DNA of 64,000 nucleotides from the NCBI RefSeq assembly GCF_030013205.1, contig NZ_CP122648.1. The stretch is one strand, 5' to 3'. The notes beneath the pieces were generated by a model, which did no database searches, was not told the DNA's origin, and saw only the letters and a list, made by a program, of their open reading frames with translations. This document shows positions 7,523-36,087 of the stretch, piece by piece. A program made the position numbers and the translations under genes. Position 1 is the first letter of the stretch, and each line of letters starts with the position of its first letter. The stretch is from Escherichia coli (lineage in GTDB: Bacteria > Pseudomonadota > Gammaproteobacteria > Enterobacterales > Enterobacteriaceae).

Positions 7523-8515
7523 CTAATCGATGGACAGTTTATGGACACTTTCAGCCAGCGGATTAAAGTTGATCGCGTCCTGTAAGAAGTCCGGCGAAAA
7601 ATGAGCGTACGTCATTGTTTGCTGAATCGTTGCGTGCCCCAGGATTCGTTGCAACGTAACAATATTTCCGCCATTCATCATAAAGTGTGTGGCAAATGTA
7701 TGACGCATGACATGCGTAGCCTGCCCCTTCGGCAAATCCGGTTTCACCTCCTGAAGAATCTCCCGGAACTTCAGATAATCAACCTGATACAATAACCCCG
7801 TTCGACGGGTTTTAATCAGAGGCACGACCGAATCCGCCACAGGAACCGAACGGGATTTTCCGTTTTTGGTGTTAAAGAACGTCACCCGGTTGCCAACGAT
7901 ATGCTCTCCACGTAGTTCCGATGCTTCACTCCATCGGGCACCAGTAGAAAGACACAGAATGGCAACACGACGCGCATCACCCTCCAGTCGCTCAAGAAGC
8001 CGTTCAATCTCATCATCAGAAAGAAAGGCCATCTCTGTGTTCTGAACTTTCAGTTTTCGTATACCGCGTACAGGGTTCGCGTTGTGAAAGACCTCAGCTT
8101 CAATCAGCACCGTGAACATGGTAGACAGTACGCATAAGTCACGATTAATACTGGACGGCATTAATCCGGCCTGTAATTTCTCTGACCGATATTCAAGCAT
8201 AAATTTTCGCGTCATCTGACTGGCGCGAGGATCTCCCATTTCACGAACAACCTTCCCTAGCCTAACCCTGTAGCTATCCCCGTAAGCCTGATTACGCCCA
8301 TCAAGCATCCACCACGCATCAAGCAGCTCTGATAATCGCCGCTGATCAGCTGGCTTAGCCTGCCATGGCTTGTCATGAAAGTTCTGTAACACATACTTCT
8401 CAAACTCCTGAGCCTTTGATTTCAGGGCAAAGATTTTTCGAATCCGCTTTCCTTCCGCCCCCTGCGGTCTGACATCGACCTGATAACGTCCGTCTTTGAG
8501 TTGCTTAATCGACAT
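7523..8515 (-). CDS. int: P2-type tyrosine integrase
   Basis: Strong similarity to P2 Int as I recall it (SIKQLKDGRY..., LCLSTGARW, HxxRHTFATH, YAHF); ATG at 8515 with GGAGG RBS; the track start at 8530 is TTG. Confidence 0.9.
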   Translation of the reverse strand: MSIKQLKDGRYQVDVRPQGAEGKRIRKIFALKSKAQEFEKYVLQNFHDKPWQAKPADQRRLSELLDAWWMLDGRNQAYGDSYRVRLGKVVREMGDPRASQMTRKFMLEYRSEKLQAGLMPSSINRDLCVLSTMFTVLIEAEVFHNANPVRGIRKLKVQNTEMAFLSDDEIERLLERLEGDARRVAILCLSTGARWSEASELRGEHIVGNRVTFFNTKNGKSRSVPVADSVVPLIKTRRTGLLYQVDYLKFREILQEVKPDLPKGQATHVMRHTFATHFMMNGGNIVTLQRILGHATIQQTMTYAHFSPDFLQDAINFNPLAESVHKLSID

Positions 8516-8584: not shown

Positions 8585-8926
8585 TCAGCCAACATTGCGG
8601 CCTGATCGGGGTGATTTTTGGGTAATACCGATTGAAACCTGATCGCCCTCCGACTGAATAGATCCATCAAGAGAGAGAGCCGGAGCAATCTGCCCGGCGA
8701 CAGGTAGCGTCTTATCTTTTATTAGCCACAGCATGTATTTTTCAAAGCGATCGACTTGCAGAACCGCCTCAACGATTTTTGCTCTAGCGTTCTTTTGCCC
8801 CGATTCGTAATTCCTTATGGTTGCCAAAGACAACCCAGTAATATCCGCAAACTGCTTTTGTGTTAACCCTTCCGCCTTACGTATCTGACGTAACTTTTTT
8901 GCATAGTCTATTGACAAGATAACCAT
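8585..8926 (-). CDS. phage immunity repressor (CI/C-type, XRE HTH)
   Basis: HTH LTQKQFADITGLSLATIRNYESG; ATG at 8926 preferred over the TTG at 8980; leftward next to int as in P2/186. Confidence 0.7.
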   Translation of the reverse strand: MVILSIDYAKKLRQIRKAEGLTQKQFADITGLSLATIRNYESGQKNARAKIVEAVLQVDRFEKYMLWLIKDKTLPVAGQIAPALSLDGSIQSEGDQVSIGITQKSPRSGRNVG

Positions 8927-9030: not shown

Positions 9031-9552
9031 ATGCGGGACTTCATTGCCGATAAAGAGTTATCTGACCACCAACCACTTCAGGAAAGTGACGCACTCAGCG
9101 GATCCATTGATGCCGCCAACGACGACGAACACGAAGAAAACAAGAAAAAGCGTTCCTACAAAAAAGGAGCGACTTTACGGCTGGATGGTCCGATCGCCGG
9201 GCTTTGCTCTCTGGAAAAAGGCGCGGCATATATTGGGCTAACAAAATCTGCACTGCGCGTAGCCATTCATCGCGGTCAAATGCCGGGACACAAGACGCGC
9301 ACAAACCCGGAAGATGAAAACTCAGACGGAGTATGGTGGTTTAACGCCAAAGAGTGGGACGCACTGGCTGACGAGCTACCGGAACTTGAGCCACCAGAAT
9401 GGCACAACTGGAAAAGTTACTGGACGTATGACCGCCAGAAAAGAAAGTTCTTTCCAGCTAATAAAGAAGACTGCCAGACCATTAACGGTAAGCGAGTTTA
9501 TACAGGCAGAAGCTCAAAACTGAACCAACTCAGAAACAACAGAGGCAACTAA
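9031..9552 (+). CDS. first rightward early gene, possible Cox/Apl-like HTH regulator (unusually long)
   Basis: ATG with GAGGA RBS; HTH-like stretch IGLTKSALRVAIHRGQMPG; occupies the position of cox/apl. Confidence 0.35.
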   Translation: MRDFIADKELSDHQPLQESDALSGSIDAANDDEHEENKKKRSYKKGATLRLDGPIAGLCSLEKGAAYIGLTKSALRVAIHRGQMPGHKTRTNPEDENSDGVWWFNAKEWDALADELPELEPPEWHNWKSYWTYDRQKRKFFPANKEDCQTINGKRVYTGRSSKLNQLRNNRGN

Positions 9553-9556
9553 TCGT

Positions 9557-9979
9557 ATGAAAACAAACACGTCAGATTTCACAATAACTATTTCAAAAAA
9601 TGACCAAGCATTAATTGATAACCTGAAATACCTTGCGGAAAAACATAATAACGGACGAATTGCAATTAATTTACGACACATCACAGGAGTAACAATTGTA
9701 ACCAGTTACTGGCATCTATATCTAATCGCTAAATCAGTACTGGAAAACAAAGATTCTGTTGTCAATGGAAGAGATGTAGATACTCTTCCTGCACAAATCA
9801 AACCGATAGCCTATCAATTGCGTAATCGTTTTAAAAATGAAGGTGGGATTATATTTGACTTTCCCGCAGCTGTAGCCGTGAGCTTCTCTCGGGAGGATAT
9901 ACTTCACTCATTTCGTTTTGCTCTATCAGGTGACGAGACATTATGGCAGCTAGAAGATGCCGGGAGCAGCCCGGCATAA
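9557..9979 (+). CDS. hypothetical protein, AT-rich gene
   Basis: 140-aa ORF, visibly AT-rich relative to neighbours. Confidence 0.45.
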   Translation: MKTNTSDFTITISKNDQALIDNLKYLAEKHNNGRIAINLRHITGVTIVTSYWHLYLIAKSVLENKDSVVNGRDVDTLPAQIKPIAYQLRNRFKNEGGIIFDFPAAVAVSFSREDILHSFRFALSGDETLWQLEDAGSSPA

Positions 9980-9985
9980 ATCAAA

Positions 9986-10177
9986 TTAAAAATCAACCAG
10001 TTGTGTGACAGGTGGGTATTTACGCTGAATTTTGTCAGTTACTAACGCCAGTAATATATGAATCTCTGCGTTTAATGCGTCTTTATCACCCGTCGTTTTT
10101 ACCCTAGGAGGGTTAATGTTATCCAGAGCAGCACTAAGGTCACTCAACAAATTAACAACTTTTTTATCTTCTGACAT
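9986..10177 (-). CDS. hypothetical small protein, lone reverse-strand gene
   Basis: 63-aa ORF with GAGG RBS 5 nt upstream of its start; convergent with the 140-aa gene. Confidence 0.35.
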   Translation of the reverse strand: MSEDKKVVNLLSDLSAALDNINPPRVKTTGDKDALNAEIHILLALVTDKIQRKYPPVTQLVDF

Positions 10178-10312
10178 GAAAACCTCTAAACAATTTAATT
10201 AAACATAAGCCAGGACCTGAACCGGCCAGTCCAAGTCCTAGACACACAAAAAATACCACAAATCAATACAAGGTGACACGAGTACACCTTACCGAAGGTA
10301 CAGAGTTTTAAT

Positions 10313-10972: not shown

Positions 10973-11215
10973 ATGGGCAAAGAATATAAAACTCTCATTA
11001 ACAAAGCACTTGAGCGTTTTTATTTTCGCTTAAGTGCATCAGGCGCTCATGCTGAACGTGCAGCCCGTGACTCATTGACCAGGGCAATCCGGAGTCTGTA
11101 TGACGTGGCTTTTTACGCTGATGATCTGGATGCACTTAACGAACTTTCCGAGCTGATCTGTGCCGCAGAATGCGGGGAACATATTGAACCGTATAAGCTG
11201 GGGAATATCGCATGA
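10973..11215 (+). CDS. hypothetical protein
   Basis: 80-aa ORF, tight spacing in operon. Confidence 0.45.
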   Translation: MGKEYKTLINKALERFYFRLSASGAHAERAARDSLTRAIRSLYDVAFYADDLDALNELSELICAAECGEHIEPYKLGNIA

Positions 11216-11325
11216 GTATATTTATCTCGTGGCTTGTTCTGATTATTTCGGTGATCTGCGCTATTGGCATTATGCGAATTATTCATTCAGTGAAAAAGAT
11301 TGAGCGTTTTTTCTCTGACGAATAA
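11212..11325 (+). CDS. 37-aa hydrophobic peptide (MSIFISWLVLIISVICAIGIMRIIHSVKKIERFFSDE), not in ORF track
   Basis: ATG overlaps the upstream stop (ATGA); single predicted TM segment. Confidence 0.3.
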   Translation: MSIFISWLVLIISVICAIGIMRIIHSVKKIERFFSDE

Positions 11326-11418
11326 CAGCACAAATAAAACACCAGATTAAATAAGAAAACGTGAAAACCATCCGAATTAACGGAGGCATTCACACACGTA
11401 AATAATGGAGATACAAAA

Positions 11419-11829
11419 ATGAACGCAAAAGAAAAAGGCATTATAACTGCGCTAAAAAATATATCGGAGACCGCAAACAGAGCCATTCAGGATGCAACAA
11501 ATGCAGGAATGATTGGGCCTGCCACCACAGCCATGATGATAGCAAGAGTAACCGCCGAAGCAGCCGAAATTATCGAAAAACAGGATGCTGAACTAACGGT
11601 TCTCAGAACACAATCAGTCACCGAACTGGATTTGTCTAACACCGGACGCCTTATTTACACAATTGGCTCGGAGCCACAGCAATACACCATTATCGTCGGA
11701 TTACAGGATAAATACCTGATCACTCCTCACCCCATAAGGGAATCAGAAATTCTGACAAATCTCCGCCTGATAGAGCGCTCTCAAGTCGCATTCATTGATG
11801 ACGCACAGCGCACCGTATTTAACGCATAG
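11419..11829 (+). CDS. hypothetical protein
   Basis: 136-aa ORF. Confidence 0.45.
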   Translation: MNAKEKGIITALKNISETANRAIQDATNAGMIGPATTAMMIARVTAEAAEIIEKQDAELTVLRTQSVTELDLSNTGRLIYTIGSEPQQYTIIVGLQDKYLITPHPIRESEILTNLRLIERSQVAFIDDAQRTVFNA

Positions 11830-12606: not shown

Positions 12607-12810
12607 ATGAACAAAAAGACCTGGTTTCGCGCATACATGTGGGCGCTGGTATGCGTCCTCGTTTCTCTCATTCTGTATGCAGGACTCCTCCCCCGAATGA
12701 TTTCATCAGACAGCTCCTTCCTGGTATTGCTGGGCATTTTCATTGCCATGCTGTACCCGGCAGGCGTTGTTCGCCTTTTCAGTAAGTACATCAAGGAAAT
12801 CAAACAATGA
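12607..12810 (+). CDS. small two-TM membrane protein, partner of downstream SPFH protein
   Basis: 67 aa with two hydrophobic helices; stop overlaps the SPFH start. Confidence 0.5.
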   Translation: MNKKTWFRAYMWALVCVLVSLILYAGLLPRMISSDSSFLVLLGIFIAMLYPAGVVRLFSKYIKEIKQ

Positions 12811-13637
12811 AGAAATTCAAACTCTTTCAGATTATCCCTCTTTTTGCCGCCATCCTGCTGGTTGGTTGCGATCGTGTTGAGCCAGGTAATGTGGGCATCA
12901 AAGTCAACAAACTGGGCGACGACAAAGGCGTCGGTGAAGTGGTTGGTGTTGGCCGCTACTGGACTGGCTGGAATACCGAGGTTTACATCTTCCCGACCTT
13001 CAAACAAATGAAGACCTACGATGAGCCGTTCAGCTTCCAGATGAGTGACGGCACAACCATCGGCTATCACATCGGTGTGGCCTACAAGGTTGATCCATCC
13101 AAAGTTACTACAGTGTTTCAGACCTACCGCAAAGGCGTGGATGACATTACCGACACTGACCTGCGCCAGAAGATCGCCGATGCACTCAACCGACTGGCCA
13201 GCAAAATGACCACCGACAAATTTATCGACGGCGGGAAATCTGAACTACTGGATGCAGCTCTTAAAGACATTCAGGAGGAAATGACACCCATCGGTATTCA
13301 GGTAATGAGCCTCTCATATGTGGGTAAGCCGGAGTACCCGTCAACCGTTATCGACAGCATTAATGCCAAAGTCACGGCAAACCAGAAAACCCTGCAACGC
13401 GAACAGGAAGTCAAGCAACGTGAAGCAGAAGCCAACATGTTGCGCGCAGAAGCTGCCGGACAGGCTGATGCCATTCGCACAAAAGCCCAGGCTGAAGCCG
13501 ACGCCATTCGTTTACGCGGTGAAGCTCTGCGCCAGAATCCCGGCGTTATGGAGCTGGAAGCAATCAACAAATGGAACGGCACGCTGCCGCAATACATGAC
13601 CAGCAATACCGCTGTTCCGTTTGTTCCGGTGAAGTAA
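12807..13637 (+). CDS. SPFH/band-7 (prohibitin-like) lipoprotein
   Basis: Lipobox LLVGC after signal peptide; SPFH-like core and Ala/Glu-rich coiled-coil C-terminus. Confidence 0.75.
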   Translation: MKKFKLFQIIPLFAAILLVGCDRVEPGNVGIKVNKLGDDKGVGEVVGVGRYWTGWNTEVYIFPTFKQMKTYDEPFSFQMSDGTTIGYHIGVAYKVDPSKVTTVFQTYRKGVDDITDTDLRQKIADALNRLASKMTTDKFIDGGKSELLDAALKDIQEEMTPIGIQVMSLSYVGKPEYPSTVIDSINAKVTANQKTLQREQEVKQREAEANMLRAEAAGQADAIRTKAQAEADAIRLRGEALRQNPGVMELEAINKWNGTLPQYMTSNTAVPFVPVK

Positions 13638-13668: not shown

Positions 13669-14004
13669 AGCAGTATCAGGATTTTTTAGTATGCCGTTCT
13701 CACAAAAAAACCGCTTGCCATGCCGCAATCAGTCAGGTTACATTTCCGCTGCACCTCATAAAACGGGTGCCGGGATTTCCACCCCGCTGACAACCAAAGC
13801 GCACAACCGCGCCAGCGGTTTTTTTGTGCGTACCGTATCGCCACGTCTTTTTCGCACACGAATTATGGTGGGGCGTATGGGGCCGACTTCGGTCGGGCCG
13901 GGTTCTTTGGTTGCCGGTTGTGGAAACCCTGTACGTCTCACCACCCCGAGTTTTCCACCTCTGGATGGTGAGTTTTCAAAACTTACAACCAAAGAGGCCA
14001 CACC

Positions 14005-14679: not shown

Positions 14680-14967
14680 ATGACAGCAGAGTACATCAGG
14701 GACTGGCAACAACCGCGCCACGCAGTGGGGCGTGAAGGAACGGGGATCCCTGCTCCTGAAGCGGTGGAAGGTGTCGCAACGTCACAGGCCGACATTATCG
14801 ACCGTTTTAATGCGCTGGAAACCCGCCATCAGCAGGACAGCCAGAAAATCACTTTACTGACCACAGAGCTGACAGCACTGAAGGAAAAACTGCGCACGCA
14901 GGACGGCGATCCGCAGAACCGGTTCACCGCAACGGGCGCAGCCTCCGATCAACTGGCTGACTTCTGA
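14680..14967 (+). CDS. hypothetical protein
   Basis: 95-aa ORF. Confidence 0.4.
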   Translation: MTAEYIRDWQQPRHAVGREGTGIPAPEAVEGVATSQADIIDRFNALETRHQQDSQKITLLTTELTALKEKLRTQDGDPQNRFTATGAASDQLADF

Positions 14968-14990
14968 TAAGACAAAGGAGCAAATTTTTT

Positions 14991-15254
14991 ATGAATCTGG
15001 TGATGTCAGATATTACCCGCAACAAGCTGGGTTGCTATATGGCGCAGCAGGCGTCGCTTAACAACATCCCGGTATCTGCACTGGTATCGCGATTTACCGT
15101 GGAACCCTCGGTGTCCGCCATTGCTGCCGCACTGCATGTGCACGGTGTGCAACGCGTGGAAATAATCGAACCCACACAGAATATGGCCATCAGCGACATA
15201 CAGGCGGCGCGCTGTGAGTCATTCACCATCAGCGAAGGTGGACGCAATGAGTAA
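14991..15254 (+). CDS. hypothetical protein
   Basis: 87-aa ORF with AAGGAG RBS; overlaps the gpI start by 8 nt. Confidence 0.45.
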   Translation: MNLVMSDITRNKLGCYMAQQASLNNIPVSALVSRFTVEPSVSAIAAALHVHGVQRVEIIEPTQNMAISDIQAARCESFTISEGGRNE

Positions 15255-35000: not shown

Positions 35001-36087
35001 CAGGCTGCCAGGCTACTGTAGGTTGCGAAGGTGGAACATCAACAGAGGCAACAGGCGGCGTCTGAGTCACAGGTTCAACCGGCGCAGCCCAGCTTTGTGT
35101 CGCCGTGGTAGCAGCAGCTGCTACAGCAACAGGTTCGGTAATTGGCGCACCATTTAATAATGGATCGTATTCGTCATATTCTGGCTGCGTTGCACGATTG
35201 CCCGAAAAGAGGACGTCGTCAGGGTCGGCAGCCACACCGCGTGCAGTGTAGGTAATCTCTTCGTCATCATCCATCCGCTTACCGGAGAACAACGCAGCGT
35301 CTGTTTGCCGCCCCATCGGATTAATGAATTTTTCCGCCAACCGTTTACGACGCGCTAACGCGCCGCGAAGAATACGGGCACGGCGTGATTCATGCTGTTT
35401 GCCGTGATTTTCATCTTCATACTCTTCGTCATCTTCATACTCATCTTCATCGACCCAGGTATCATCGCGACGGGTACGATTACTGGCGAAGGTGAGAATG
35501 TTTAAAATCCAGCCGCCGAGTTTTTCAGCAATGGTCACCCATGACCAACCGGTGAACAGCGTCAGACCCGCAGCCCAAACGCAGAGCAGCGCAATAGTTC
35601 CCCCGCTACTGTGTAGCAGTGGTTGTAGCGTAGTGCTTAGTAAGCTGCCAATGACGCCACCGGAGGCAAAATACCAGATATCGTCAGCGTTGATTGCCGC
35701 CAGACCACAGGAGGTAAGGATGAGCGCCAAAACGCCAATGATGCGTAGCGAAACGGCAAAATAATCAATGTATTCGTCGCTGGACTGATGACGCCAGGCA
35801 AACCAACAACCGCCGACAATAATGACGGGAATGGTGTAAGCCATCACGCCAAAAATAAAGAACAGCGTATCTGCCAGCCACGCACCGGGCATCCCACCTA
35901 AATTATGGATAGGTTCATGCCAGGCCGTTTGCGACCAGCTGGGGTCCGAAGGGTTAAAGCTTAGTAAGGCAGCCATCAACCAGACGGCAAACAGGACAAT
36001 AAGGATCAGCAACGCCTCCAGAAGGCGGCGGCCGCTACTTAACTTTGTCAATGTGACTTCTTTGTCTTCAGTGTATTCCTGGCTCAA
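32020..36087 (-). CDS. ftsK: DNA translocase FtsK
   Basis: 1355-aa ORF: N-terminal TM domain, long Pro/Gln-rich linker, C-terminal motor with Walker A. Confidence 0.95.
33575..33800. repeat. about 5.5 tandem copies of a 39-bp unit inside the ftsK linker (encodes [13 protein letters not shown] repeats)
   Basis: Repeated ctgctgatactgcggctgcggtgcaaccggttgttgtgg visible on the plus strand. Confidence 0.7.

Follow-up and report, generated by a model that had tools for sequence, protein, structure and literature searches.

A 37-codon open reading frame in the early region of an Escherichia coli prophage, short enough to fall below the cutoff of the ORF track, raises two linked questions: whether it is a gene at all and, if so, what its hydrophobic product does. 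We analysed it within a 64-kb window, by which we mean the whole stretch of DNA under study (64,000 nucleotides). The ORF listing places the frame exactly at 11212-11325 on the plus strand, with an ATG start and 37 codons followed by a stop, and its ATG overlaps the TGA stop of an 80-aa upstream gene as ATGA (Table 1); in both respects an earlier note had read the locus correctly. Taken by itself the frame does not rise above chance, since the window contains 215 ATG-initiated ORFs of 30-60 aa, and one of these, a spurious 37-aa ORF beginning at 35392, exceeds it in hydrophobicity. This extremely hydrophobic ORF (35392-35505, plus strand) lies antisense inside ftsK, is almost certainly spurious and serves as a negative control: hydrophobicity alone is no evidence for a gene. 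What does set the peptide ORF above chance is the evidence of conservation.

Table 1. Positions of the peptide gene, its parts and neighbouring features in the window.
Feature	Positions	Strand	Basis
Integrase gene	7523-8515	-	Prophage annotation
C-type repressor gene	8585-8926	-	Prophage annotation
cox	9031-9552	+	Prophage annotation
DUF4754 gene, 80 aa	10973-11215	+	Pfam PF15946, E 2.8e-54
Weak Shine-Dalgarno-like GGGG, 8 nt 5' of the ATG, within the end of the DUF4754 gene	11200-11203	+	Sequence
ATGA in which the start codon overlaps the upstream stop (translational coupling)	11212-11215	+	Sequence; GCATGA in all lineages
37-aa membrane peptide gene, product MSIFISWLVLIISVICAIGIMRIIHSVKKIERFFSDE	11212-11325	+	ORF listing, related annotations, frame conservation, pN/pS
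TM helix and conserved core, codons 3-21	11218-11274	+	Hydropathy, family alignment, entropy and helical angles, AlphaFold2 helix
Juxtamembrane amphipathic tail, codons 22-37 (RIIHSVKKIERFFSDE), predicted cytoplasmic	11275-11322	+	Charge count, hydrophobic moment
T6 homopolymer, codons 32-34	11307-11312	+	Alignment of 56 distinct downstream sequences
Conserved small stem-loop, TCCG(N)-4-nt loop-(N')CGGA, then GG	11371-11384	+	Pairing in 13 distinct variants

Conservation was assessed across 96 loci, made up of 80 IMG/VR loci together with public phages and divergent contigs. The earlier note had proposed loss of the frame in related prophages as the observation that would count against a gene; at 94 of the 96 loci, however, the frame runs uninterrupted through 30 codons or more, the exceptions being the frameshifted L041 and phage 503458. 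In phage Chuche it stops after codon 30. Among 32 distinct alleles of the core, plus-strand frame 0 is the only one of the six frames that is free of stops in every allele. The ratio pN/pS is 0.33 in this frame and 0.84-1.20 in four others; the antisense frame that shares its third positions reaches 0.43, but is interrupted by stops in 19 of the 32 alleles. Variable columns are distributed 16/9/24 over the three codon positions. Between lineages, pairwise dN/dS is 0.13-0.44 with synonymous sites near saturation, and identity in the peptide core stays at 57-68% while that of the adjacent DUF4754 protein falls to 26-40%.

The signals for translation are kept as well. The junction GCATGA is present in every lineage, including the divergent lineages P0004, P0005 and P0006 taken from a HMMER scan, and a Shine-Dalgarno-like motif is maintained with predicted anti-Shine-Dalgarno duplex energies of -5.5 to -10.3 kcal/mol. 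Divergent lineages carry stronger motifs at the same place (GAGGAG, -8.5 kcal/mol, and AGGAGG, -10.3 kcal/mol). From these sequence comparisons we conclude with high confidence that the peptide gene is real and has been kept by selection.

The gene also proved to have entries in existing records, so that "unannotated", as the earlier note had it, does not hold. An identical copy, in a region 100% identical to ours on the chromosome of E. coli ETEC4079, is entered as the "hypothetical protein" WP_001519659.1; its ortholog in phage P88, gp07 (YP_009113050.1; 92% identity, tblastn E 1e-13), is called a "membrane protein", and phage vB_EcoM-569R5 annotates the peptide as a "putative membrane protein". 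The exact peptide is recorded on 682 contigs and belongs to a 183-member cluster at 90% identity, and sibling variants from E. coli and Salmonella carry the UniRef name "Prophage membrane protein". Some records, for example NC_049344 and NC_049341, omit the gene from their annotation. A literature search, with the contents of the P88 papers outside its scope, found no mention of DUF4754 or of the peptide sequence. These prior records are predictions, and the peptide, judged from its sequence, is an ordinary yet genuinely conserved small phage membrane protein.

The family is common within a narrow range. Among 5426 complete E. coli genomes, 1366, about a quarter, have a match to a 1.5-kb region containing the gene, and in 816 of those genomes at least 80% of the region is covered; since so many genomes match, thousands of annotations list the peptide as an unexplained hypothetical protein. 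The same region matches 14 phage records, all Xuanwuvirus-like and including Citrobacter phage phiSM, and members of the peptide family occur only in P88-like prophages, from Escherichia, Shigella, Salmonella and Citrobacter. A HMMER search of 1.84 billion representative proteins returned seven clusters, all of them members of this peptide family with the same N-terminal core. The upstream family is similarly restricted: names among DUF4754 homologues are almost all Escherichia with a few Shigella and Salmonella, a scan of GTDB species representatives for DUF4754 yielded a single locus on a contaminant-like contig in a Collinsella MAG, and tblastn of a divergent DUF4754 protein against phage genomes gave no match. 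Because the DUF4754 family is so narrow, it offers no wider phylogenetic sample. This distribution indicates that the peptide and DUF4754 constitute a lineage-specific early module of P88-type phages.

The product has a simple predicted architecture. Strong hydrophobicity is limited to residues 3-21 (mean Kyte-Doolittle 2.82; summed Hessa-2005 dG -3.6 kcal/mol), which follow an uncharged N-terminus, and AlphaFold2 run with the family alignment models one helix over residues 2-35 (pLDDT 87), so that hydropathy and model agree with the single-TM peptide that had been proposed. The remainder, residues 22-37, is another matter. With 4 K/R, 3 D/E and 1 H its net charge is about +1, and it is therefore not simply basic: the proximal part is basic (R22, K28, K29, R32), and the terminal SDE is acidic. 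Moreover, it is amphipathic, with a muH of 0.73 that 2% of shuffles attain. The "basic C-terminus" of the earlier note is thus better termed an amphipathic juxtamembrane helix; apart from this point and the matter of annotation, that observation was largely right.

Conservation is concentrated in the N-terminal part. In the family alignment M1, S6, W7, L10, I11, A17 and I24, the last lying just past the TM segment, are invariant, and F4, G19, I20 and I23 nearly so. Beyond about residues 27-33 the tail is freely replaced through frameshifts: single-base deletions in the T6 run produce 45-aa tail variants in related prophages, the 59-aa peptide of lineage P0006 results from a deletion near codon 28, and the 30-aa Chuche peptide is a natural truncation. 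Since the tail is free to change, selection acts on the TM segment and on the juxtamembrane turn directly after it. Within this core, positions 6, 10, 13, 17, 21, 24 and 28 are spaced as i, i+4, i+7 and occupy 120-200 degrees of the helical wheel, where S6, L10, S13, A17, M21, I24 and K28 make up one stripe with small residues at S6, S13 (or alanine) and A17. The most variable positions (5, 8, 9, 12 and 15) lie on the opposite side of the helix. This arrangement suggests that the conserved stripe is a helix-helix packing face, although the conservation moment is weak (0.15-0.19) because nearly the whole helix is conserved, which leaves an interface on one face suggestive only.

The peptide gene lies in an element between dmsA and serS that is a P88-type P2-like prophage (Xuanwuvirus, Peduoviridae). 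In intact relatives the genes follow the order int, C, cox and, further on, gpA, with an accessory run that ends at this replication gene. In the window the accessory run, on the plus strand, comprises DUF4761, DUF4754, the peptide gene, a MarR-like wHTH gene, an Ead/Ea22-like gene, the gene for a 67-aa membrane protein and that for an SPFH protein. This layout corresponds to that of the P2 early operon, which is transcribed from Pe. Placement of the peptide gene in the early operon, as the earlier note had proposed, agrees with its position downstream of cox on the early-operon strand. Between cox and DUF4761 the lineage in the window carries two genes (9557-10177) that P88 lacks, one of which (9986-10177) is on the minus strand; this gene is followed at 10210-10241 by a terminator-like hairpin with a 14-bp stem, which could block read-through from Pe toward the peptide gene. 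With the minus-strand gene and the hairpin standing between cox and the peptide gene, we can only infer co-transcription from Pe.

Several further features of the element are worth recording. The prophage is a remnant (~14680-15110 to ~28300) in which gpA, gpO (scaffold) and gpN (major capsid) are adjoining short pseudogene fragments; according to the RefSeq annotation of an identical record, it retains tail genes, ogr, the early region and a Hok/Gef gene. The last of these, a 46-aa type I toxin gene, occupies 28070-28210 (plus strand) at the right prophage end, just before serS. The 67-aa membrane protein of the accessory run (12607-12810, plus strand; phrog_1130) is two-TM-like, and its gene has an ATGA overlap with that of the SPFH-domain lipoprotein (12807-13637, plus strand); the two form a second membrane-directed pair in the operon, found only in some relatives. 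Rfam matches above the gathering score mark isrK at 13751-13825 (64.3 bits) and a C4 antisense RNA at 13861-13948 (80.5 bits), both on the plus strand. Just downstream of them come the "ash family" pseudogene and the derepression-protein region, an arrangement suggestive of an antirepressor or immunity module under RNA control inside the early region. In locus L085 (GCA_900536625.1) MuA-like transposase and MuB-like genes (1-633 and 705-2795) replace the integrase, repressor and cox end; these Mu-type genes in a P88-like early region may reflect a hybrid or an insertion.

Downstream of the peptide gene, the spacer at 11326-11418 contains a small stem-loop that is its best-conserved part even where the flanking genes of the lineages differ; it is common to the window, L002, L003, L084, L088 and L092. 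In the 13 variants 98.5% of stem cells are paired and the loop sequence is free, with one compensatory change of the closing pair (between C:G and U:A) and tolerance of G:U, the latter favouring an RNA on the plus strand. The copy in the window has an A-A mismatch at the fifth pair, and no T-run follows the stem-loop downstream. Its position is just 5' of the junction where cargo genes differ. Directly 3' of the spacer the window carries a 136-aa ORF (11419-11829, plus strand; phrog_9338) that is absent in P88 and several relatives; those without it have a 67-aa gp08 homologue instead, with the swap point right after the hairpin. The stem-loop may mark a site of processing or pausing, act in translation or delimit recombination.

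DUF4754 lies directly upstream of the peptide with a 4-nt overlap in every locus, both in the 96-locus set and in all divergent lineages. AlphaFold2 models it as a soluble three-helix bundle (pLDDT 90), and Foldseek comparison of this model with PDB and BFVD gave only generic helical-bundle matches (E > 0.3), so the partner gene provides no functional lead. "Long" DUF4754 proteins of 103-116 aa were considered as natural fusions to the peptide and rejected; they are frameshifted singletons in a different frame. One possibility is that the peptide and DUF4754 form a previously unrecognised two-gene early module.

Searches with the peptide against Pfam, PHROGs, NCBIfam, PADLOC and PDB (the last with both the single sequence and the family profile) returned nothing above hydrophobic noise, of which PET117, DUF6007 and phrog_5620 were sub-threshold examples. 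Likewise, no similarity to a characterised inhibitor or toxin family appeared in Pfam, PHROGs, NCBIfam, PADLOC, PDB or the ~1.8 billion representatives. A kinship with TatA was prompted by a weak NCBIfam match (E 0.0043) in which a single family member scored 16.9 bits, far below the cut-off of 104 bits; the window peptide itself has no NCBIfam match to TatA (NF003393). TatA, TatB and TatE carry a polar residue at TM position 8 and an F-G hinge before their amphipathic helix. In the peptide family position 8 is L, I, V or F rather than polar, and Gly19 is preceded by I or V, leaving no F-G hinge; the family profile finds no TatA in PDB or Pfam, and hhalign gives a probability of 0.35%. We therefore rejected assignment to TatA/B/E (PF02416).

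Regulation of larger membrane proteins by small ones with a single TM helix has precedent (review PMC12648545). By analogy, our favoured explanation, to which we give an even chance, is that the peptide would be a small inner-membrane modulator acting through TM helix packing on another membrane protein during early lytic development. As an accessory gene of a P88-type prophage it would be transcribed with the early lytic operon, from a Pe promoter beside cox that, by synteny with P2, would be repressed by C in the lysogen, and its translation would be coupled to that of DUF4754 through the ATGA overlap. The product would span the inner membrane once, through the helix of residues 3-21, in the N-out/C-in orientation predicted by the positive-inside rule, with a short amphipathic helix lying on the cytoplasmic face of the membrane. 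Function would reside in the TM segment together with the juxtamembrane turn that directly follows, whose conserved face (S6, L10, S13, A17, M21, I24) would pack on a TM helix of a host or phage membrane protein, or on itself, and thereby modulate a membrane process early in lytic development. In this proposal we take the gene, its selection, its architecture and its synteny as established, and from them we infer when the peptide would be expressed, how it would sit in the membrane and that it would bind another helix.

Other functions can be weighed against the same evidence. By analogy, the peptide could be a division inhibitor or growth-arresting toxin, in which case its target would be a membrane protein of the divisome or of envelope synthesis and its effect, early in the lytic cycle, a block of division or growth. 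Such a function falls within the favoured explanation and is compatible with it, as a special case, and the size, single TM helix and early-operon position of the peptide fit the class. SidA of Caulobacter (29 aa) is a small hydrophobic division inhibitor, and Kil, DicB and KilR are soluble proteins, not TM peptides. That the best-known E. coli prophage inhibitors are soluble counts against this reading, as does the lack of sequence similarity to any known inhibitor in the searches above. On its side, E. coli has well-documented small division inhibitors encoded by prophages; ymfM (10.1101/2020.11.19.390815) and DicB (10.1101/708461) are each described as one. We regard this function as unlikely, and the earlier note's interpretation, which pointed the same way, as plausible but unproven, with partial support. 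Superinfection exclusion or another anti-phage role, in which competing phages would find DNA entry or their inner-membrane receptor blocked by the peptide, is common among small phage membrane proteins; DicB is described as protecting by acting on inner-membrane receptor proteins (10.1101/708461), and the gene sits among variable, moron-like early genes near the SPFH protein and another small membrane protein. However, three family members gave no PADLOC match, and since the gene shares the strand of the lytic operon and has no promoter of its own above chance, we do not expect it to be expressed in the lysogen, which is where exclusion would count most. For want of a promoter above chance and of a PADLOC match we do not favour exclusion, and consider it improbable.

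Strict adjacency with the 4-nt overlap in every locus, together with the shared narrow taxonomic range of the two families, raises the idea that the peptide is a membrane anchor or obligate partner that would tether soluble DUF4754 to the inner membrane, at a ratio fixed by coupled translation. Recombination speaks against such a bond: alleles of the two genes are mixed, L085 combining a window-like DUF4754 (83% identical) with a divergent L084-type peptide, and the same L084-type allele also occurs beside a DUF4754 of 40% identity. Furthermore, the cytoplasmic tail, which would have to make the contact, is the least constrained part of the peptide, and there are no true in-frame fusions, the long forms being frameshift artefacts; we find this partnership quite unlikely. 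A type I toxin of a toxin-antitoxin pair would likewise be a hydrophobic peptide of fewer than 60 aa, and two promoter-like matches do lie on the opposite strand inside the gene. Such matches are at chance, however (5 found, 6.4 expected), the peptide is translated by coupling within an operon without its own promoter or a long structured leader, and Rfam reports no antisense RNA at the locus, in a scan shown to be working by its detection, 2.4 kb away, of the isrK and C4 RNAs. The prophage does have a genuine Hok/Gef gene at its opposite end, whose product bears no resemblance to the peptide, and we judge a type I toxin exceedingly improbable. It is also conceivable that the amino-acid sequence is irrelevant, the frame being kept only for the passage of ribosomes (anti-polarity or mRNA protection) or being a chance ORF. 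Short hydrophobic ORFs do arise by chance, as at 35392, and the tail is unconstrained; but the selection analysis contradicts this reading, with the low pN/pS confined to the peptide frame, invariant residues across lineages saturated at synonymous sites and a core more conserved than the flanking protein gene, and we hold it to be very improbable.

A more specific and probably incorrect reading has the peptide as a phage-made TM decoy that would dock through its S6/L10/S13/A17 face on a host inner-membrane machine and retune or disable it at lytic onset. The machine might be part of the divisome, a translocase, or a transporter or receptor that rival phages exploit. Precise inhibitors of host membrane machines have repeatedly been found among small phage membrane peptides, and if the decoy proposal were true, it would add a new and very small one that is genetically tractable and whose host target is defined; a 37-aa peptide with its activity in one helix would ease discovery of that target. 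Overall, our analysis validates a sub-cutoff ORF as a true gene, delimits its functional core and corrects or sets aside the attractive labels that it had invited, namely unannotated, basic tail, type I toxin and TatA-like.

The type I toxins Hok/Gef, TisB, Ibs and Ldr share with the peptide the form of a short hydrophobic alpha-helical inner-membrane peptide, whereas the peptide belongs to an operon, is translated by coupling and comes without an antisense RNA or leader. The N-terminal region of TatA, TatE and TatB is superficially similar, with a very short N-terminus, a TM segment containing W7 and LII(A/S)VI, a glycine and an amphipathic helix. SidA, Kil, DicB and YmfM are likewise small, come from stress-induced or prophage early regions and act on the envelope or division machinery, but they have no homology to the peptide, and Kil and DicB are soluble. 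P88 gp07, WP_001519659.1 and the UniRef "Prophage membrane protein" occupy the same position after DUF4754 and have the same length, with no substantive difference from the window peptide. AcrZ (49 aa), KdpF (29 aa) and MgrB have no sequence relationship to it, and unlike them the peptide is phage-encoded and found in one prophage lineage only. They do resemble it in size and in having a single TM helix, and they function through TM helix-helix contacts with a larger membrane protein (PMC12648545), as we would expect of the peptide.
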